A stretch of 63,069 bases of DNA, the filler included, from Stramenopiles sp. TOSAG23-3 (Eukaryota), in the NCBI GenBank assembly GCA_900128585.1. It is 8 parts of 8 records of this genome, joined end to end, with 100 filler letters (N's around TTAATTAATTAA, not from the genome) between each part and the next. Parts side by side here need not be neighbours in the genome. Positions count along the whole stretch, not along the records: positions 7,936 to 15,762 come from LT643097.1; 7 more parts are not named here. The stretch is one strand, 5' to 3'. The translations under genes and the position numbers were made by a program. Shown piece after piece: positions 651 through 63,069 of the stretch. The notes below the pieces were generated by a model that ran no database searches, was not told the origin of the DNA, and saw nothing but the letters and a program-made list of their open reading frames with translations. Positions within the stretch are counted from its first letter, which is position 1. Every line of letters begins with the position of its first letter.

Positions 651-931
651 GAGGGTAACGGAAATGAACAAGTTCGTTTGTAGTAGTAGCTACTACATTC
701 ATTAAATACTATAAGTATACGTGTTAACGAATTTGTATTTTTGTATTTATGTTTTCATTCATCAGTCGTTTCTTTAGTCATTCTTTTGTTTCATTGTATT
801 ACACATTGGTTTGTTAAATTTGTTTGTTTTTTGCGTGATTGCATCGTTCTATACATATACATACGTATATATTCGCTGACCGACCAGCCAGCCAGCCACC
901 AACGAACACCAACCGTCCGCACCGAAACAAG

Positions 932-2344
932 ATGCCACGACGTCAAAGCCGTAGTCAAAATGTTAACTCGACCACCATATCCAGGGAGGAACTGATGGGT
1001 ATCCAACGGATGGTCTCCGAGCCAGAGCACACGGACCACATGAGGGACAAGCTCGACCGAAAGAAAATGTGCGACGCGCGCGTGTCCCAGTGGCCGAATA
1101 CGTTAGAAGCGATGAGGCGGAACAAGGAAGCGGCCCGGGAGAGACGGTTGGTGAACGAGGAAGCCGAGCGCCTGAAGGAAGACAAGCGGCTGGCCGCCGT
1201 CCGGGCGCAAGAGCGAAAGGTCCGCATTGAGCGGGCCAACCGCATGATCTACGAGAGCACCGATCGCATGAAGGTCCTCCGCAGTCAACTTATGTTCACG
1301 GATATCAACGCGCATAGGGACCGCCAAGTTCAGCAGAAACAGTACTGGAAGACGATGCAAAAGGAGCTCGACGGGATGTGGCACGGGGAAATCGAGCGCC
1401 AAATGCGCGAGTACGACGAGAAGGAGGGAAAGGACCTGGCGGCCAGGCACGCCAAGCACCAAGACATTGCAAAGATCCAGACCAGGCAGCTGCAAGAATA
1501 TAAAGACAAGTACATTGCCCAGCTTCGCTCGGAGCGGGAGGAAGGCATTAAGATTGCCGCGGCGTGCGTGCAAGAGGTGGCCGACGAAAAGGCCAAGATA
1601 AAGGCTGTCAAGGACCGCGCGAAGGCCAACATGGTTGCCACCTTGAAGGGGAACGAGCAGCTCCAAGAGATGAGGAAGGAATTCGCCAAGAAGGAGGCCT
1701 TGGAGGATGCCGCAATTGCCAAGTACGCGTCCGACAAGGAAGCGTCGGATAAGATGAGGAAGGCGAGGCAAAAGGAGCAGTTTGACCGGGCCCAAGCCAA
1801 GCGCCAAAAGATCATCGACGACGCCGTTGCCGCCATGGCCAAGTTTACGAACAACGAAGAGACCCGCCTGGCGTCGCAACAAGCCGAGGCGAGGGCCAAG
1901 CAAGACAAGGCGTTCGCGGACAAAGCTAGGAAACAACAACAAATGCGGGATGCCATCGAGGAGAGTAGAGTTATGCAAGAAACCATGCGTAGAAAGCAGC
2001 AAGACGAGGACGACGCGCTGGCCCGCGAAATGCAGCGCAGGTGGAAAGAGCGCAACGCCCAGTTGAATGCCGACGAGAAGCGAGAGCGCAAGGAGCGACG
2101 GGACAGCGCCCTGGCCTACCAAAACTTCCTGCTGAAGCAAGCCGAAGAGAAAAAGCGAGGGCGCCGAGAAGAGCGCGAAGGATCCCTGCGCGATGCCAAG
2201 ATTGCTGCGCAAGTGAGTGCCGAGGAGGAGGGACGTTTCTTTGACGAAGTCCGCAAAGCGCTCGCAAACATGGAGCCGGGACTGAACACGCACGCGGTGA
2301 AGAAATGTCTAAACTTGAAAGAAAAACTGCAGGAGGCGTGGTAA
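932..2344 (+). CDS. CFAP210: CFAP210/CCDC173-like axonemal coiled-coil protein (TPH-domain family)
   Basis: ATG at 932 (MPRRQ). Motifs 'RVSQWPNTLEAMR' and 'RIERANRMIYESTDRMK' resemble the CCDC173 N-terminus. The rest is E/K/R/Q-rich coiled coil. Confidence 0.75.
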   Translation: MPRRQSRSQNVNSTTISREELMGIQRMVSEPEHTDHMRDKLDRKKMCDARVSQWPNTLEAMRRNKEAARERRLVNEEAERLKEDKRLAAVRAQERKVRIERANRMIYESTDRMKVLRSQLMFTDINAHRDRQVQQKQYWKTMQKELDGMWHGEIERQMREYDEKEGKDLAARHAKHQDIAKIQTRQLQEYKDKYIAQLRSEREEGIKIAAACVQEVADEKAKIKAVKDRAKANMVATLKGNEQLQEMRKEFAKKEALEDAAIAKYASDKEASDKMRKARQKEQFDRAQAKRQKIIDDAVAAMAKFTNNEETRLASQQAEARAKQDKAFADKARKQQQMRDAIEESRVMQETMRRKQQDEDDALAREMQRRWKERNAQLNADEKRERKERRDSALAYQNFLLKQAEEKKRGRREEREGSLRDAKIAAQVSAEEEGRFFDEVRKALANMEPGLNTHAVKKCLNLKEKLQEAW

Positions 2345-9756: not shown

Positions 9757-11394
9757 ATGGAATCCATTGTAGTTCGTTCGTTGCCGCCAAATGTGGTCCT
9801 GTCGCACGCGCACCTGGGCGCACTGTTCGGACAACGACCGGTGCCACAGGTCAGGGGATCGGGTATCCCTCACGCTTCCGCGACGAAAAGCGTCAAAGTA
9901 GTAAACGTTGCCTCTGGTAAATCAATTTCAGTTGGTGTTTTTGGACCGAGCAGTAGCGGCACGACGACGAGAGTACAGTTATCAGGGACCGCGCTGCGCC
10001 GTATTGGTCTGGAGGCACCCACTCGGCTTTCTCGGTCTCTGAAGGGCTCGGGCTCGTGCAAGTTGGTTGGCCCGTTGGGGGAAGTTGTTTTGTCGGAAGG
10101 GGTGATCCGACCGTGGCGATCTGCTTCCATGTCAACTAAATTAGCCAGCAAGTTCGGGCTGAAGCATAACGACAACGTGGCATTGAAAGTCACGTGCCCC
10201 CGGAATAGTGTGACTTTCTGCACTGTTAAAGCGCAGGTGGAGGATCAGCATGCGGGGGAGGTGGTCACGTGCGTGCTGGACAGTGACGAAGCCGGGGCAT
10301 GCTTGCTCGCGGACGCAACGCAGTTCGACTTATACGCAATGCAAGGCAAGATTGATAAAAGTTTTACATTCGTCCACCTATGCACTACCTCTGCAATCGG
10401 TAAAGTCAACCCCGCCAGGGTAGACACGTGGGCAAGGGAAGTAATGTCCCGTGAATTCAAACAAAACTACCCTTCCTCCTCCCCGGTTGTTGATGTTACC
10501 GACGTTTCAACAACAGGCGGGAACAAAGAAAGTTCAGTATCGTTCAGCGACGAGAAAGAATTTAAGTTAAACGTTGATGTGTCAAACAGGCACGTCCATG
10601 TCAGCCCAGAGGCCCTCGAAAAGCTGTACGGAAAAAATTACTCGTTGGAACCGTACAAACCAATTGCCTACTTGCCTGAGTGGCTGGCGAAACTTGCGGC
10701 GTTCAGCGCCAAGGAAACGGTTACAATTAAAAACACAGAGACGAATAATGAGATCAGGAACGTTCGAATTTTGGGGCCTCCCCGGGCACGGTCTCAGATA
10801 GAGTTAGCGTTCACGGACTGTCAAATTTTAGGAATAGAGGCACCGACGCGAATCTCCGGGGACAATGTAAATTCGTCCCCAATAGTACTGATCGCAGAGG
10901 ACCTCTCATCAGGGAAGCCGACGACGAGGCGGTTGAATCTTGGCACGGGCGCCCTGCGTGCATGGAGGCATATTCACGCGGACGAGGACGAGGCGGACCG
11001 TCTGGGGTTCCAAGCAGGAGACGTCCTGACCTTGGCCGTCAAATCAAAGGGCAGCACCACACTTTTTCATGACGTTTTGGCACGGGTTGGCGGTGATGGC
11101 GACGGGGTGGAAAAACCTGGATTCTCCTTGTGGAAGTTGGCCAAGCCGTACCTGATGGCTGCCGCGGGCGTATACTTGAAGTGGGTGGGACGCCCTGGTT
11201 TAATAATACATTTGGACACCGACGAAGGCAACGCGTGTTTCCTCTCTGATGCCGAATATTTCACATTGTACAAGCAATTAAACGATGGGAAGGGAGGGCT
11301 AAAATTTCTCGGTTCAACAAAGAACATGGCAAAAATGCCAGATAGGAGACAGAAAATGTGGCAAGAAGAAGTGAAGTACCGTGCAAATCTTTAA
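9757..11394 (+). CDS. pduL: Tandem PduL-type phosphate acyltransferase (PTAC): degenerate N-terminal copy plus intact C-terminal copy
   Basis: C copy has VSNRHVH, KETVTI, VRILGPPR..SQIE...TD...LGIEAPTRISGD, RHIH and HLDTDEGNA. N copy aligns through GLEAPTRLS, LVGPLGEVVLSEGVI and LDSDEAGA. Confidence 0.9.
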   Translation: MESIVVRSLPPNVVLSHAHLGALFGQRPVPQVRGSGIPHASATKSVKVVNVASGKSISVGVFGPSSSGTTTRVQLSGTALRRIGLEAPTRLSRSLKGSGSCKLVGPLGEVVLSEGVIRPWRSASMSTKLASKFGLKHNDNVALKVTCPRNSVTFCTVKAQVEDQHAGEVVTCVLDSDEAGACLLADATQFDLYAMQGKIDKSFTFVHLCTTSAIGKVNPARVDTWAREVMSREFKQNYPSSSPVVDVTDVSTTGGNKESSVSFSDEKEFKLNVDVSNRHVHVSPEALEKLYGKNYSLEPYKPIAYLPEWLAKLAAFSAKETVTIKNTETNNEIRNVRILGPPRARSQIELAFTDCQILGIEAPTRISGDNVNSSPIVLIAEDLSSGKPTTRRLNLGTGALRAWRHIHADEDEADRLGFQAGDVLTLAVKSKGSTTLFHDVLARVGGDGDGVEKPGFSLWKLAKPYLMAAAGVYLKWVGRPGLIIHLDTDEGNACFLSDAEYFTLYKQLNDGKGGLKFLGSTKNMAKMPDRRQKMWQEEVKYRANL

Positions 11395-11823
11395 GAGAGA
11401 TGATAATATTGAATCCTTGTCAAAATTATGATAATTATATTTGGAGGTGTCTGCTGCTGAATGAAGTAAACTAAATACTATATTACAATATTAGAATACA
11501 TTTTTTAAATAGGGCGTCGAGTTCTACTATTTGTCTGTTATGGACGTCTCATAGTTTATATAAACACAGTATTGGGTAAAAATAAGCTTATCACCAGGTA
11601 TAATAATAAGGACACAACACCACCACTACACCTTGGTACAAGAATTCCTCCTCGTATTTATTGAACCTTTAAACGACGATCCGACTGTTCTGCTCTTACT
11701 CGCGCACTTTAGGTTGAAATCCATTGACGAAACAAAATTTTATGGGGTTTATAACGTGCCTTTTTTCTTAAATAGAAGAACGGTATCTTTAACAGGAAGT
11801 GGAAGGTTTCAGTTTTGAAATAG

Positions 11824-21316: not shown

Positions 21317-23661
21317 TTAATGGCGGTGGTCTTCAGCAGCGAGCAAATCGATTGGGGCAAAGCCTCTCTCTATAAGAAACGAGCAAGGGCCGAGTGCAAA
21401 AGCCCAGGTCCCTCCAGTCACAAAAACGTCAACGGCGGTCCGTTGGCCATTCCAATGTGTAGATATTTCTGTCCCATTGGCGCCCAAATGCATCTCGGCA
21501 ACGCATAATGGGAATGGAAGAACATGCTTTTGGTGCAGTTTGTCTGAGACATGCAAGACAAGACGAGCTCTGCCACAGTTGTGGGGTATCGTGGCATTCA
21601 TATGGAAGATCTTTTCTTCCATCTTCCATGCGACTTCCACAGGCCCACAACGCGTTTCTATTCGTCCGTGTGCGGCCTTCAGTATTTTTACAGCATGTAC
21701 ATCTGGTGTTAAGTGCATTGTGACATGTTTGCTCAAGTTGATGGTGCCGTTTCCTCGCAATTTTCTCCAATGCAACGGGATCGACCATGTTGACGGGTCA
21801 ATCCCTACGATAGAATACAGGTACGGACCAATGCTGGCGGTAAACATTGGGTGGTTGTGTGAGTTAGACTGGTCGTTCCACGTTTCCCAGATAGTTCCAG
21901 GCCCCTTCTTCACCATGTAACCCCAAGACGGCTCGTCTTCACGCATTGCCATAGATAGAGCAATGTCACCACGCCCAGCACTGACCAGAGCTTGCAAAAC
22001 AAAACTCGCCCCTACCAGGCCGGAGTTTGTTGCATTCTTCGCTTTTTCCACGTTTTCGACAAAAGCCTTTGCTGCCATTTTTGTTTCTAAATCCGACGGA
22101 GGGATATTTAGAATAAGTGGCATTAAGTTAGCTGTTTGGCTTCCACCCTTGTAGCACTTGCAAGAAAGGTCCCAGTATGTTCGATGATAAGCCGCTTTAA
22201 GTGATAGCAGTGTTCGGTTGTATGCCTTTGCATCCGCATGCTTTCCTAGATATTCAGCCATATCTACCAAATGACTGACAGCTTGAATTTGTGTCATCGA
22301 TGTTACTTGTGGCTTGCCCGTTGCCTCTAAAGATAACCAGTCTCCATAATAGCCAAATTCAATCAACCCGTCACCAGAAGCTTCGCGTTGAAAGAAATCA
22401 ACATTTGCTTTCGCAAAATCATAAAATTTTTCCACCAATTCACTATCACCACTTTTCCACACGACATACGGCAATACAGTAGCGATTGCACCCCAGCTTG
22501 GATCGCCAGGCCATCCGCCAATGTACATGTAAGGTACTACGTCAGCAACACTTCCTTGTATTTGGTCGAACGTTCCGTTTGGGATTCCGGTATAATCGCA
22601 ACCAAATTTAGAATACTTTGGGTAGCAGCAAATGTCCTTATTGGTCTGGGGAAAAACTGGCGTGGTCCCATGAAGAGCGCAGCCCGCATGGTCGTGATCC
22701 AACATGGTCAAAAGCCAATGTTCGTACAGCAATGTCATATCAAAGTTAAGCGAAGCTTGCCGGCTCGTAAATTGAGCATCGCCGGTCCACCCTCGCTTTT
22801 CCCGTTGTGGGCAGTCTGTTGGATGAAAGTGTAAATTCGATAACTGCGTCTGTATAATAGCGGCTTGGATCCCGTTCAAAACAGGACTGTGAGGAAATGA
22901 AATATGGCCCCTTTGAGAAACATTTGAATGAAGAAACAAGCCCACGAGATCAGTAGGAACGGGAGTATACGAGGCTGCGATATTCTCTACTTGAACATAA
23001 CGGTACCCATGATATGTGAACGATGGTATAAATTTGAATCGTTCCGATGCTTCCTGCGCAAGAAAAGGTATGTATGTGTCGGTCTGATTAGCACAGTTGA
23101 TACTGCTGCAGTTACACGGTGTCTTGCACCATGCCATATCGACAGTGCCATCGTCCTTAAGAACTTCCCCATACTTCAGAACAATTGGAGATCCATCGAC
23201 AAACGCACCTCTAGGTAGTGACAACTCGGCATACCCTGCCATATTGTGGCCCATATCAAATACCCAGTGCCCTGGGTGTGGCTGTTGAACTGCGACGGGC
23301 ACATAGCGTTTTGATATTGTTATTGGAGGCATTTGTAACAGCGCAGGTGTCCCTAGCGCTCGTTCTGCCGGAATAGAACCGCTCCCCGTATTGAACATGG
23401 CCAACACAGCCGACTTCCATTTGCTCCGATCGTCCGTGGCCACCCTCCCATCGTACTGCTCGCCGTGGTACAAATGGCTGTAACGTATAGGGTTTGCTTC
23501 TGTCGTAGCTTTCCATAGTCCGTCGGATGTGGATGTTACTATCCTTTGTTGTCTGCCATCTGTGTACGTCACTCTCAGAGACATTCGAAATGCTTTGCAC
23601 ACGTCTGTTGCAGCATGCCCACCAATACAGAACGCATCTTGATACGAAAATCTACACATTC
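21317..23661 (-). CDS. Alpha-L-rhamnosidase, GH78 (5'-truncated)
   Basis: VFDMGHNMAG, FTYHGYRYVQV, PTDCPQREKRGWTGDA, YGDWL, PSWGYM..GPGTIWETW and SHNHPMF. Confidence 0.93.
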
Positions 23662-32023: not shown

Positions 32024-32095
32024 TTACACTGACTGGAGTCGAACCAGCTACCCCCGGGACATGAGTCCGGTGCTCTGCCGTTGAGCTACAATGTA
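32024..32095 (-). tRNA. tRNA with CAT anticodon (Met-like, atypical; possibly a pseudogene)
   Basis: Minus strand folds as TACATTG TA GCTC AACGGCA GAGC A CCGGA CTCATGT CCCGG GGGTA GCTGG TTCGACT CCAGT CAGTGTA A, followed directly by a T7 Pol III terminator. Confidence 0.8.
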
Positions 32096-47454: not shown

Positions 47455-50400
47455 TTAGGAGTCTATTTTGGAAATCTCTTGCGCAAGACTCTCCCCCAAC
47501 AATCCCTGCAGGTGGCCTTTCACAAAATCACTGCTGCGCTTTATCTTTTCCGCAAGATGATTTGCAATGACGGAGAAGAAGACTGGGGCCCTTTGTTTCC
47601 GCAAGCCACCTTCTACCAAACCTTTACAGTACAAACTGTACATTTCCTCGTCGTCGCCGTTGAACAAGCTAGGACCAACATCGTACCTCTCAAAGCCAGC
47701 TTCTAACAGGTACATCATGCGGTTCTTGGTGCCCTTCCTCCATACGTACGAACGGGAATTCTTGTCCTGCGAAAGAAATATCAGCACGCGAGCAAACGTA
47801 GAGTGGCCAAAGGAAGACCGGAAAAAGGTATCTACCAGTGCGGACGACAATTCTTTCACCCCGTCCTCTCCGCATACTTCCAACAACTCGGTGATCGACA
47901 CGCGTTTTAACAGTGCATCAATCAAAGGACAGACATTCTCTGAGATCACGTCTTCGTGGATGAGTTCACCGTCGCGGCGCAAAAATGCCTGCACCAGACA
48001 GAACAAGCGAAGGGGCAGGGGTGCTGCTTTGAGGACATTTTCAGAGTGCAACAGGCCGGAACTTTCCAGCTGGGATATCAGCAGCACGGTTTGCTTCAGC
48101 ACGTTCAAACTGGCCTTGCCGTCCATGGTCATCCCCAGCCACAACCAGTGCCGGGGCACCGGCAGTATCGAAGGCTGGCGTTTGGACATGGTCCGAGGCA
48201 CTAAACTGCAGCACAAATCGAGGGGAGCAGACGCAGACGTGTTGAACAGCGAGATAGAATGCTTTTGGGTGTGCTCGTCTCCCAAGAAGGAAGCAAAGAA
48301 TCGTTTGATCTCCTCTGCATCGACCGCGCTGTTCTTCGTCAGCAGAGGCGACCATACTAAAATATTACTCAACAAATTGGCAAACACGTACTCATCGCCG
48401 GGAAGGATGTTTCCCATTATGGCAAACGACGCGCTGAAGAGTTGCCCGAACACGTCCCGCTGTTTGTCATCCTCCGGGTTGACCTCCGCAACAATGCGCA
48501 CGACAACATCCACTGCGTCGGCTATCAAAAGAACCCGAGCGCGCTCGGTGTACGGGGAAAGCCCTCGCCACGCCCTTGCCATGTCTTCGCTGTCGAGGCG
48601 CACGGCAAACTTGTTGAGAACGGACAACAGGATTTCGACAATAGCGCTGCCGAACATTTTTATTCCACTCTTAAGCATCGCTGACGGGTCGTAGACAAGC
48701 AACGATTGCAAACAGCGCACGTAGCCGTGCAAGACGGCGATGGAATAATCGCGGTCTTCTTTTGCCCCGTCGGCGCGTTCGACCGCGTCAATCAAACGGT
48801 CACTTTTGTGCACTTGAAACATCAACGAAACGATTCTTGAACTCCATCGCGATGGTGGAAAATTGCACGTGCAGTAAGTTGAAATAAAATGCAGCGAGGC
48901 GGCAACCACTTTCGTCCCATTTGGCTTCAAGCTAGCGTCCAAAGCTTCCAGTGCACTTTTCAAGTACATCTCCAATTCCACCTGAACGCTTTCTGCAGAC
49001 TCGTTGTTGCTGTTGCCGCGTTTTCCTGTTGGTTTAGACCGGAAGGCGAGCGCTCTTGCCGAACAGACTGCGTAGACCATGTTTGCCAGTACCTTCCTGT
49101 CCTCCCCTGCCGCTGCTCTTCCTGGAAGCTGGCGCAGCGGCTCGTGCATGGCCATGAACGATGGAACGTCCAGGCCCAGCAGAGCCGTCGATGGAATCGT
49201 GCGCAAAAAAATGGCTCAGCATTTCTGGCGAGAGCAGGTACCGTTTGACCGAGTCGGACAGCCCGTCCGGCGCGGCAACATCCCCGGCGATGGAGCGATC
49301 CATCTGGCACAGCGTTCGGACAAACCGAATAGCGTTGTGGATCACCGTTCCCCCGCTACCGTTCTCGGCGCCTGAATTCCCTTCGATGTAAACCAACCGC
49401 ACGGTGTCTATCAGCTTTTGGTTGTCCCAGATTGTCTTCGCCGCTGCGATGGAATGGGACGCGGCATACGCCAGGGTGTCCATTATGCACCTGGCCAATT
49501 CTATCGGAAGAAAGGCGTCCTCGGTCCCCGCAGAGGGAAGGGAGGAGGCAAGAATTCGATCAAAATATTCCAACATTCCGCTTCGAATTGCCCAGCGAAC
49601 AGGATCTTCCTCTGAGAGTCGTGCGAGCACCCCGTCCGCCGTCTCCTCGCTGGCCTCGTCCTTGCTGTTCCTCTGCAGCTCCGCTTCCCCGACCGCGTCG
49701 ACGACATGGCGGGTTGCAATGGTACAGTGTGGGCTTTGAGCATGCTCTATATGAGGCCAAGCCTCGTGCCTTTTGTAGCCAGCATTCGAAGCCTGCTCCC
49801 GTAAGAACTGCTTTGGAACTAACCATGCGTGTACCGATGCAATGGCTTCGTACATCACCGCCAGGACGTCGCTGCGAAGCCCGAGTATAAGGACTTGCCC
49901 AAGCGACCGGGGCAGCTTCGTCGGCGTCACCACCTGCCCCGTGGGCCTGTCCTCCAGGACGTCGCGTCGCCGCTGCAAGACTTTGGTAAGGGCCCGAAAG
50001 GCCGTCAGCCGTTGGCCTGAAACCACGCTTCGGCTCAAGTGAACCAACTCGTCCACCGTGTACCCGGGCAGTGTCGGGTCATCCCCATGGTGGTACAAAC
50101 TTTCCTCGTCCCCGTCCTGAACCCCGACCACTCGTACGTTGCGAACGTCCTCCCCCTCCCCCAACAAATGCTCGTCGCCTTTCAGGATCACCCTGACCCC
50201 GCTTAAATCAAACCTTGGGGGTTTGGCAAATATCGGAGTGCCCTTGCCCTTGTCCTTCACTGGCTCCATCCATGCAAGTTTGTCCTTTTCGAACGAGGGA
50301 AGGTACTCTTGGGTTGCCGCGATCAGCTCTTCGTCCGTTCTGATGGTGGCCAACTTGTCAGAGACGCCAGGGGGCAAAGTCGGGAACAGGTTCGGGGGTG

Positions 50401-51226
50401 GTCCAGAGGTTGACGGGGGGCGGGGCGGCGGGGTGCTTTCGCCTGCGGTCTTGTTGGGCCGTACTTCGGAGCGAAACTTGCTAGGGGGTTTGGCCGCAGG
50501 CTTCTGCACGTCCCCGCGGGCCTGGGGCTTTGGTCCCCCCCGCCGTTTCCTCAACATCGCCACCAAGGACGGGTCCATGGTGCCCAACAAGTCATCGCGC
50601 GCCTGCTCGACCTCCTCACTTGACATTCCTGCCAACCGCTGCAAGTTCTCGCGGTGAATCTCACTTCTGCTGATGCCAGTCTCGCCCACATTGTCGTTTG
50701 CAGCGCCTGGGGGGGAAGAGGAGGAGGAGGCAGCGGCCGCGTCCGCCGCACTGCGCTTTCTCTGCTCCTCCGCCAACATTTGTCCAAATTTCGATGGACC
50801 GGATTTCTTTCCCTTGCGCGCGGCCAAAGAAAAGGAGAGTTTGCTGCGATGGAGCGCCTTGGGGAATCCCCCCGGGCTAATAGACGGTGCAAAGTACGCG
50901 CTTGGGTTTACCTCCCGCTCAAAAACATCACAGAGCACATCAACTGCGACCGGGGCCTCCATTGGCACTCTGCCAATGTTTGACGGGCCGCCTGCAAACA
51001 TAGTTGGGGCCTTCGTTTCGGCCCCAGCCGCGGTGGGAGGTCCCTCTTCATCGTCTAAACTAATAATATCTTTTTTAACACTTGGAAACTCCTCTTTCGG
51101 GCGCGCAGAGACGACATTGGCCGCAGGCCGCTGGCGCTCTTTCGCGGACATAAACATTCGCTGGGACTCGAGGACCTGGTCCCACCCCGCTTCGTCCTCT
51201 GGGTTCGAAAGGCGAGGGTGGAACAT
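47455..51226 (-). CDS. RPAP1: RNA polymerase II-associated protein 1 (RPAP1/Rba50), split by one frameshift near 49205
   Basis: RPAP1_N EIHRENLQRLAGMSSEEVEQARDDLLGTMDPSLVAMLRKR; RPAP1_C LYHHGDDPTLPGYTVDELVHLSRS...QR; the ARM-like ORF 47455-49206 continues it. Confidence 0.88.
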
Positions 51227-61593: not shown

Positions 61594-62907
61594 CTAAACG
61601 GTGCAACCTTTGTTCACGCAGCCAAAGTAAATGCCAGCGATACCCATCTGTGGTGGGTTGGTGCTCCTGGCTACTCTGAAGTACCCTTCTTCCCCAAAGG
61701 TAGTGTTCCACGAATTTTTCACAATCCAATAGTCGAGTCCTGTTTCTGAATCGGTTTCTGCGCCGATTATAGTGACGGCATGGTCCACCGCAGTGGTCGT
61801 ACAGTTTGAAACGATCCCCCCCTTGTACGCCTTCACACAGCTAGCATCAATGCCAATTTGCCCTGGCCCATACTTTAAAAGTCCAGCCATCATTTCTGTC
61901 GAATCGCCATCACTGCCGATGGCTACAAAAGTGTTGTCTTTAATGACCGCGTTGGAGAACTCCTTCTTCAATTGGCATGGGGGGGTCCCATCGCGCCGTT
62001 CAACACCTGGGCAAGGTGGGCAGGGTCCGTAGGGAGGGTTCGGTGGCAAGTTGCAGTTTGGAGTGTAGCCATCCCTCGTTCCATCCGGGGCCAGGAGTTC
62101 CTCGCGGAAAAAGTTGCACGTTCGGTTGTAAACATACGTCTCTTCCAATTCAATTTGTCCACCGGTCGCTTCGGTTAGCCAGGCAAAAGTCACATCCCCA
62201 GATTGTCCGCAATCTTGGGGAGGCACGCAGGATACGACCATCTGCTCACTCAATTTTTGAAGTTCTTGTTTTCCTTGCACAACCATGGCTCCCTCTGTGG
62301 CGGCAACCATTGAGAACGCCCAGCACGTTCCGAATGGGTGCTGCTGCTGAACGGGTGTGACCGCACCATGTTCTCTCCAGTCAACAGTAGCAGTCTTGGC
62401 ACGCTGCAGTTCACTTTCTGTAAAATGTGTCTTGGTTTTCGATGACATAAGGTCGTCCGAGGGACGGAACCCACCAAGGGCGCGCTTGGCCTCTGCGATG
62501 GAAAAGTCCGAAAATGCGCTTGGGCCGTAACGGGCGCCATGCTTTCCTTCAGCAGCATTTCGTTCTGCATAGTCCTGCAGGTTCTTTTCAAAGTATGACT
62601 TTCGTTGCTCTTTCTCGGCACTGCTCTTGTACGATTTGGAGTGTTTCTCCGCCCACTTCTCGAAATCATAGTCCGTCGACGAGTTCGTGCATTCGTAAAC
62701 TCCAGATGGGAGCTTTCCCGCGTCAGCAATCGTCCAACAGGCGCTGGGAAGAGCCGCACACTTGCACCATGAACAGCCACCCCCAGTAGTTGTATCTGCC
62801 AGGCACGACTTTTCGTCGGTATGCGCCGAGTGGCAGGCGTCTTGCGCCTGTACTGCCGCAGCAGAAAGCACCAAAAGAAGCGTGACCGAAGTCGTCGAGA
62901 ATTTCAT
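61594..62907 (-). CDS. Papain-family (C1A) cysteine protease with I29 propeptide and extra Cys-rich N-terminal module
   Basis: Signal peptide, FEKWAEKHSKSY (I29), VDWRE.GAVTPV, GTCWAFS, DHAV and YWIVKNSW...GEEGYFRV. Confidence 0.94.
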   Translation of the reverse strand: MKFSTTSVTLLLVLSAAAVQAQDACHSAHTDEKSCLADTTTGGGCSWCKCAALPSACWTIADAGKLPSGVYECTNSSTDYDFEKWAEKHSKSYKSSAEKEQRKSYFEKNLQDYAERNAAEGKHGARYGPSAFSDFSIAEAKRALGGFRPSDDLMSSKTKTHFTESELQRAKTATVDWREHGAVTPVQQQHPFGTCWAFSMVAATEGAMVVQGKQELQKLSEQMVVSCVPPQDCGQSGDVTFAWLTEATGGQIELEETYVYNRTCNFFREELLAPDGTRDGYTPNCNLPPNPPYGPCPPCPGVERRDGTPPCQLKKEFSNAVIKDNTFVAIGSDGDSTEMMAGLLKYGPGQIGIDASCVKAYKGGIVSNCTTTAVDHAVTIIGAETDSETGLDYWIVKNSWNTTFGEEGYFRVARSTNPPQMGIAGIYFGCVNKGCTV

Positions 62908-63069
62908 TTCGAAAAGAAAGTCGAGCAAATGTATATTTGTTTGATCTAACGTTCAGTTGTGTGTAACAGATGTACGGTTTGCTATCATTTCACTCTCATT
63001 CTTTCCATTTGCATAAATTCTCCGTACTACTCGTAGAGAAAAAGATAGTAGAAATGATGATATGGTGGA

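Follow-up and report, generated by a model that had tools for sequence, protein, structure and literature searches.

A tandem PduL phosphotransacylase of a marine stramenopile carries a candidate peroxisomal targeting signal

Introduction

What would an enzyme known from the protein shells of bacteria do in a marine protist whose nuclear genome encodes it, and in which compartment of the cell would it work? This question is raised by a gene of Stramenopiles sp. TOSAG23-3 (assembly GCA_900128585.1), found in a stretch of 63,069 nucleotides, hereafter the window, in which eight parts of eight records are joined end to end, and in which parts placed side by side need not be neighbours in the genome. 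The gene lies in the part that comes from record LT643097.1 and encodes a protein of the PduL phosphotransacylase family (Pfam PF06130, PTAC), known from bacterial microcompartments (BMCs). Its last codons (AAG TAC CGT GCA AAT CTT TAA, positions 11374–11394) read K-Y-R-A-N-L-stop, in which an earlier, sequence-only reading had seen a resemblance to a type 1 peroxisomal targeting signal (PTS1) and a possible sign that the enzyme had moved from a protein shell to the peroxisome. The analysis presented here indicates that peroxisomal import of this protein is reasonably probable. Slightly less secure, at somewhat better than an even chance, is the complete explanation, in which a tandem PduL would be imported into the peroxisome by means of –RANL and would there free coenzyme A (CoA) by phosphorolysis. 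The claims on targeting and on its significance are drawn from sequence patterns.

Gene model and transcript support

The 545-aa product of the open reading frame (ORF) matched PF06130 with an E-value of 5.5e-60 and 202.6 bits, against a cut-off of 25 bits, the match falling into two stretches, and its residues 4–539 presented 51% identity with the orthologue P0020. A shorter public model of this PduL comprises 421 aa and starts at M125; the region upstream of this residue was covered by an RNA-library contig (9843–10016) and by all orthologues, and one piece from a polyA library was also placed upstream of the 421-aa model start. Contigs from all four RNA libraries were colinear with the gene, amounting to 11 pieces that spanned positions 9843–11580 with no joints, which speaks for the 545-aa model and against splicing at the C-terminus, bearing in mind that such libraries can contain DNA. 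None of the RNA-library contigs placed on the gene extended past 11580, and the stretch between the stop codon and this position is a probable 3′ untranslated region, weakly evidenced since contigs cannot show the end of a transcript. The gene model and the states of its domains, as described below, are held with high confidence.

Some sequence differences were observed along the gene. Residue 199 (10351–10353) is K in the window and N in the public 545-aa and 421-aa sequences, and one RNA-library contig departs from the window by T>C at 11343 and, in the 3′ region, by 7 inserted bases after 11454. These differences look like population variation.

Tandem architecture and active site

A search of 1.84 billion representatives recovered 1174 PduL relatives at E-values of 1e-3 or less, only 10 of them at 1e-30 or less. 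These close relatives, together with a few weaker ones, make up what is here called the eukaryote-type, defined by a 9-residue insertion and by a C-terminal tail module. The insertion sets the HxH-to-LGPxR spacing at 62–63 residues in the eukaryote-type (62 in the C-terminal copy of the query), versus 51–55 in prokaryote types, and the tail module is common to eukaryote-type PduLs and is not found in prokaryotic ones. This module is homologous to the first part of the linker between the two copies of the query, since GKVNPARVDTWAREVMSREFKQNYP of the N half aligned over AKMPDRRQKMWQEEVKYR of the C-terminal tail.

The two PTAC copies differ in their active sites. The zinc ligands of rPduL (His48, His50, Glu109, His157, His159 and His204) are described as absolutely conserved, and its Arg103 as a phosphate contact, in the structural account of PMC4784909. 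The C-terminal copy of the protist protein keeps all six ligands (H279, H281, E349, H405, H407 and H485) and the arginine (R343), which were invariant in alignment A1, and the solved PduL structure 5cuo was matched over residues 269–445 with an E-value of 5.1e-18; this copy is predicted to be the catalytic one. The six zinc-ligand columns of the N-terminal copy, on the other hand, are occupied by N12, V14, Q74, S122, S124 and V173 instead of H, H, E, H, H and H, and this copy is probably non-catalytic. Some zinc ligands were likewise lost in the N copies of the four other aligned tandem proteins. Since rPduL is described as a dimer (PMC4784909), the N half could plausibly serve as an inactive partner fused to the C half, and we infer that it probably acts as a built-in partner mimicking the PduL dimer.

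A quick maximum-likelihood tree was built from 68 rows (8 N halves, 8 C halves, 7 single-unit eukaryote-type sequences and 45 prokaryote-type sequences, the latter being the first 45 representatives of 180–250 aa), with SH-aLRT support values and leaving out the fragments P0163, P0164, P0167, P0171 and P0177. The prokaryote-type rows split off on one branch (SH-aLRT 98), and the N halves formed one group (SH-aLRT 92) whose branching order was the same as that of the C halves, which points to a single duplication before these lineages split. From these sequences, the tandem duplication of PduL appears to be old and to have happened once.

The C-terminal ending as a peroxisomal signal

Beyond the last conserved motif of the PTAC domain (HLDTDEGNA, H485–A493), the protein continues into a C-terminal extension that ends in R-A-N-L-stop, as the sequence-only reading had noticed; position –4 is an Arg and position –6 a Lys. 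The closest orthologue, P0002, ends in –YRSRL, and the arrangement Y-R-x-x-L is common to both proteins. In human catalase, –KANL was reported to be necessary and sufficient for targeting in human fibroblasts and in yeast, the lysine at –4 being critical and its replacement by Arg leaving targeting unreduced, according to the catalase experiments of PMC2120961, which agree with the earlier claim that this signal needs a basic residue at –4. Moreover, ANL> is found among the validated plant PTS1 tripeptides of PMC3427985 (Table A1) and is given as 'newly verified' in Table 1 of PMC9542071. The protist tail (A-N-L, with R at –4) thus corresponds, by a match to the literature only, to a working non-canonical PTS1 with its required upstream context.

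The frequency of such endings was assessed in the window itself. The loose pattern [SAPC][KRHNS][LMI] preceded 38 of the 4002 stops in the six frames (0.95%), and the strict PTS1 consensus, (S/A/C)(K/R/H)(L/M) as given in PMC3178647, preceded 0.22% of them; among the 66 window ORFs starting with ATG and having at least 100 aa, one had a loose PTS1-like end, and this was the PduL ORF itself. A single PTS1-like ending, taken alone, is weak evidence, hardly beyond chance, and it is because of the pattern in its relatives that the RANL ending goes beyond it.

The tail also holds traces that may bear on its history. The internal A-K-M of the query (...GSTKNMAKM-PDRR...) aligned with the terminal –AKM of P0004 (...GSTKNSMAKM-stop), and it may mark an older C-terminus or PTS1 position. 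Similarly, P0002 presents an internal RSKL, followed by its terminal –YRSRL. At the other end of the protein, the alignment revealed that the N-terminus begins at the first strand of the PTAC domain, with no extension, which means that there is no competing signal peptide, transit peptide or presequence; nor is there an encapsulation peptide at this N-terminus.

Targeting signals across relatives

The sequence-only reading had proposed that, if the signal were real, the C-termini of orthologues should be enriched for SKL-type variants, and this is what was observed. A PTS1-like C-terminus was present in 9 of the 15 eukaryote-type sequences with a readable end, namely the query (ANL), P0002 (SRL), P0003 (SKL), P0161 (SKI), L001 (SKM), P0004 (AKM), P0162 (SKM), P0165 (PKL) and P0218 (SRL); all seven tandem-type proteins with an intact end are among these nine. 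No PTS1-like end was found among 259 prokaryote-type or unclassified PduLs (0 of 144 and 0 of 115 in two sets). L001 was the only eukaryote-type sequence among 80 metagenome loci, the other 79 looking prokaryote-type by match length.

What the earlier reading had not foreseen is that several of the relatives lacking a PTS1 carry a head resembling the type 2 signal (PTS2). A PTS2-like nonapeptide, R[LIVA]x5[HQ]L, was located at residues 7–15 of an N-terminal extension in five further clusters: P0005 (RVRHLSRHL), a tandem-type with four members that are all truncated at the C-terminus, P0007 (RLGKVASHL), P0175 (RVEILQNHL), P0006 (RAAAIAGHL) and P0308 (RIRQLARQL). These nonapeptides fit the PTS2 consensus as it is given in PMC3178647. 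The same pattern occurred in 6 of the 259 control sequences, in 5 of these 6 inside the catalytic domain.

These distributions bear on the possibility that the endings are coincidental, the family being non-peroxisomal and its tails serving for folding or oligomerisation only. The homology of the tail with the inter-copy linker module gives it a structural history independent of targeting, which counts in favour of such a reading. Nevertheless, it is confronted with the contrast between eukaryote-type and prokaryote-type C-termini over a background of 0.95%, with the PTS2-like motifs in the PTS1-less relatives, and with the fact that tails of unequal length all finish in PTS1-like tripeptides. 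In the alignment these ends fall at non-homologous positions, which argues for selection on whichever residues are terminal. Coincidence is already disfavoured and is considered very improbable.

Points that weigh against import

Several observations count against peroxisomal import and the function proposed for it. The first concerns the signal: the Asn at –2 places A-N-L outside the strict consensus, and in the catalase experiments of PMC2120961, SKL could not be replaced by ANL alone. The second concerns the family. Six of the 15 eukaryote-type sequences have no PTS1-like end (P0006, P0166, P0007, P0178, P0309 and P0310), and in three of these (P0166, P0178 and P0309) the N-terminus is ambiguous or cut; P0310 looks complete and has neither the PTS1 nor the PTS2 pattern. 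Furthermore, the relatives are kin, and the nine PTS1-like endings are not nine independent events. The third concerns structure, since the AlphaFold2 (AF2) model, obtained from a 9-row alignment, was poor (mean pLDDT 60.5, pTM 0.56), with pLDDT below 50 for linker residues 227–266 and tail residues 524–545, and the low confidence of the tail says little about its exposure. Finally, the scan of 27 window ORFs of at least 200 aa, the only place where acetate kinase was sought, did not reveal this enzyme.

P0310 itself is a single-unit eukaryote-type protein of 275 aa, from a cluster of 20 members, and carries 50 additional residues at its N-terminus; it may have another destination in the cell, or else a faulty gene model.

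The weakness of the tripeptide would fit another reading, in which this organism keeps the enzyme in its cytosol, –RANL being the decayed remnant of a canonical signal in a once-peroxisomal family. A-N-L departs from the strict consensus and was insufficient alone on a reporter (PMC2120961), and the closest orthologue has the stronger –YRSRL. Against such decay, Arg at –4 is the exact requirement of the catalase-type signal as described in PMC2120961, ANL> was experimentally validated in plants (tables of PMC3427985 and PMC9542071), the query and P0002 have both retained Y-R-x-x-L although their overall identity is only 51%, and the ending is unaltered in two environmental RNA-library contigs, whose RANL codons are identical to those of the window. 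A decayed signal is considered unlikely, and a working one, read in its upstream context, is preferred.

Proposed function

In the preferred explanation, –RANL would act as a weak, context-dependent PTS1 read by the receptor PEX5, and all or part of the enzyme would be carried into the peroxisome matrix. The C-terminal unit would there catalyse the PduL phosphotransacylase reaction (acyl-CoA + phosphate <-> acyl-phosphate + CoA), most likely in the direction of phosphorolysis, with acetyl- or propionyl-CoA from beta-oxidation as probable substrates. CoA would be freed within the peroxisome, renewing the CoA pool of the organelle, and the small acyl-phosphate could exit and still yield ATP by means of acetate kinase. 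This is the same logic as that described for PduL in metabolosomes (PMC4784909).

The direction of the reaction and the strength of the signal could also be read in another way. Catalase-type signals are weak, and such a signal might split the enzyme between cytosol and peroxisome, the reaction in the organelle running towards acetyl-CoA. Dual localisation would link cytosolic acetyl-phosphate (from phosphoketolase and acetate kinase) with the use of acetyl-CoA in the peroxisome (glyoxylate cycle). The PduL reaction is described as reversible in PMC4784909, and malate synthase is listed as peroxisomal in diatoms (PMC3178647, Table 1), a diatom case that may not be that of this host. However, phosphoketolase, acetate kinase and glyoxylate-cycle genes are all absent from the present evidence for this organism, and the strong canonical signals (SKL, SRL) of most relatives argue for full import. 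Dual localisation is held to be somewhat less likely still than the decay of the signal, and phosphorolysis following import remains the favoured explanation.

Origin and link with bacterial microcompartments

The provenance of the gene was approached by means of its prokaryotic relatives. Two prokaryotic loci, among the most similar to the query, were examined with a 3-kb flank, and both L003 (1956–5810) and L035 (2123–5722) presented the order DeoR regulator, PduL, two BMC shell genes and acetate kinase. These loci are consistent with a resemblance between the eukaryote-type PduL and microcompartment PduLs, and with the protein-shell origin suggested by the sequence-only reading, as both are BMC loci. 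The named short matches to the catalytic half were mostly to Planctomycetes, a planctomycetal donor being a lead only; the sister prokaryotic group of the eukaryote-type PduLs was not fixed in the quick tree, and the protein atlas returned matches to bacterial PTAC clusters only, with scores below 0.9. A PTA family of bacterial origin in stramenopiles and haptophytes is reported in a preprint on horizontal gene transfer in diatoms; as the passage does not state the Pfam family, it may or may not be PF06130. Overall, the PduL gene was probably acquired horizontally, and its peroxisomal signal is judged to be genuine and probably functional.

A bolder proposal is that the whole core of a metabolosome (CoA-acylating aldehyde dehydrogenase, PduL and acetate kinase) was rebuilt in protist peroxisomes, the membrane replacing the shell. 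If true, it would let the peroxisome make ATP at substrate level, keep toxic aldehydes confined (lactaldehyde derived from rhamnose or fucose, for instance), or do both. BMCs of this kind are linked with rhamnose or fucose. This reconstruction is improbable, but it is worth testing since L003 and L035 pair PduL with shell proteins and acetate kinase, and since a GH78 gene lies 10 kb away along the window.

Genomic and environmental context

The window is eukaryotic nuclear DNA, with a G+C content of 44.8% and with ORFs that are long and for the most part unbroken. Among the 27 scanned ORFs, 12 had Pfam matches and 15 had none, and the BMC shell domain (PF00936) was absent from all of them. The neighbours in the window include Myb, WW, RPAP1, EF-hand, SulP/STAS, a cathepsin-L-like protease with I29 propeptide, TPH and GH78 proteins (Table 1). 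The split of RPAP1 over two overlapping ORFs suggests a short intron or a frameshift, and some of the shorter Pfam-less ORFs, which overlap others, may not be real genes. Proteins with TPH domains often belong to cilia or flagella, and we take the TPH-domain ORF to hint at a flagellate host.

The GH78 alpha-L-rhamnosidase gene, 10 kb from the PduL gene along the window, may be a second bacterial-type gene, possibly tied to the breakdown of deoxy-sugars. In addition, DNA of the window was detected in many marine metagenome runs (at least half of the sampled words in 14, and some of them in 20, across 14 studies), and the host is a widespread marine protist.

Table 1. Coordinates of the PduL gene, its parts and other features, counted along the whole window
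Feature	Position	Strand	Basis or remark
Whole gene, 545-aa tandem PduL/PTAC protein, intronless ORF including stop	9757..11394	+	ORF reading and Pfam
N-terminal PTAC copy, about residues 1–198, degenerate	9757..10350	+	alignment of zinc-ligand columns
Inter-copy linker, about residues 199–264	10351..10548	+	first part homologous to the C-terminal tail module
C-terminal PTAC copy, about residues 265–507	10549..11277	+	zinc ligands kept; 5cuo match
Internal A-K-M, residues 525–527	11329..11337	+	aligned with terminal PTS1 –AKM of P0004
R-A-N-L, proposed non-canonical PTS1, basic residue at –4	11380..11391	+	sequence and literature match
Stop codon and probable 3′ untranslated region	11392..11580	+	contig X15 (10893–11580) colinear past the stop
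TPH (trichohyalin-plectin-homology) domain ORF	839–2344	+	Pfam
ORF with no Pfam match, 1334 aa	3786–7790	-	
GH78 alpha-L-rhamnosidase, bacterial-type, 780 aa, all four domains	21317–23659	-	catalytic domain E-value 5.8e-67
tRNA-Met (CAT)	32024–32095	-	sole Rfam/ARAGORN match in the window
RPAP1 over two overlapping ORFs	47455–49206, 49034–51226	-	RPAP1_N and RPAP1_C in one, TPR_RPAP1 repeats in the other
ORF with no Pfam match, 1306 aa	55264–59184	-	
Cathepsin-L-like protease with I29 propeptide	61594–62928	-	Pfam

Relation to known systems and significance

The closest known system is the PduL of BMCs, such as that of the Salmonella Pdu compartment and that of Rhodopseudomonas palustris (5CUO/5CUP). 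The protist protein shares with it PF06130 and, in the C copy, the six zinc ligands and the phosphate-contacting Arg, as well as the proposed logic of renewing CoA in a closed compartment and exporting the acyl-phosphate. Whereas BMC PduLs are single units of about 200 aa, the protist protein is nuclear-encoded and joins a degenerate copy to one predicted to be active; it also bears the 9-residue insertion and the tail module, and in place of an N-terminal encapsulation peptide and shell genes it has a proposed PTS1 for a membrane-bound organelle. As for human catalase, the terminal A-N-L is identical and the residue at –4 is basic in both, but the protein and the organism are others.

Classical Pta (PF01515), of which the algal and oomycete Pta-Ack pathways are examples, performs the same reaction with an unrelated fold and family. 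The known locations of eukaryotic Pta enzymes are the plastid, the mitochondrion and the cytosol. The presence of canonical Pta in some eukaryotes is mentioned in PMC4784909. Full-text literature searches, whose hits were judged for relevance partly by title or listing, returned no description of a eukaryotic or peroxisomal PduL, or of a peroxisomal Pta, and the enzyme does not appear in the main texts of the peroxisome surveys published for diatoms, a cryptophyte and Nannochloropsis, the supplementary protein lists of these surveys lying outside the scope of this comparison. What is new is the combination and the architecture, the enzyme family and the targeting system being both already known.

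CoA esters do not cross the peroxisome membrane freely, and free CoA must be regenerated from the acetyl-CoA of beta-oxidation. The known solutions for freeing CoA in peroxisomes are carnitine transferases, thioesterases and the synthases of the glyoxylate cycle. The job proposed for the protist enzyme is like that of these systems for exporting acetyl units (carnitine acetyltransferase, acyl-CoA thioesterases and glyoxylate-cycle synthases), with which it has no homology and from which it differs in that phosphorolysis by PduL keeps the high-energy bond as acyl-phosphate. Table 1 of PMC3178647 includes a diatom carnitine acetyltransferase that bears –SKL.

If the proposed explanation is true, a peroxisomal PduL would be a fourth, energy-conserving solution for freeing CoA, and an enzyme of a bacterial protein shell would have been re-addressed to a eukaryotic membrane organelle to perform the same logical job. 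Moreover, the occurrence of PTS1 in some lineages and of PTS2-like signals in others would constitute a natural experiment on how a horizontally acquired gene gains organelle targeting. Since the DNA of the host is present in many marine metagenomes, this putative pathway may play a part in how marine protists turn over carbon.

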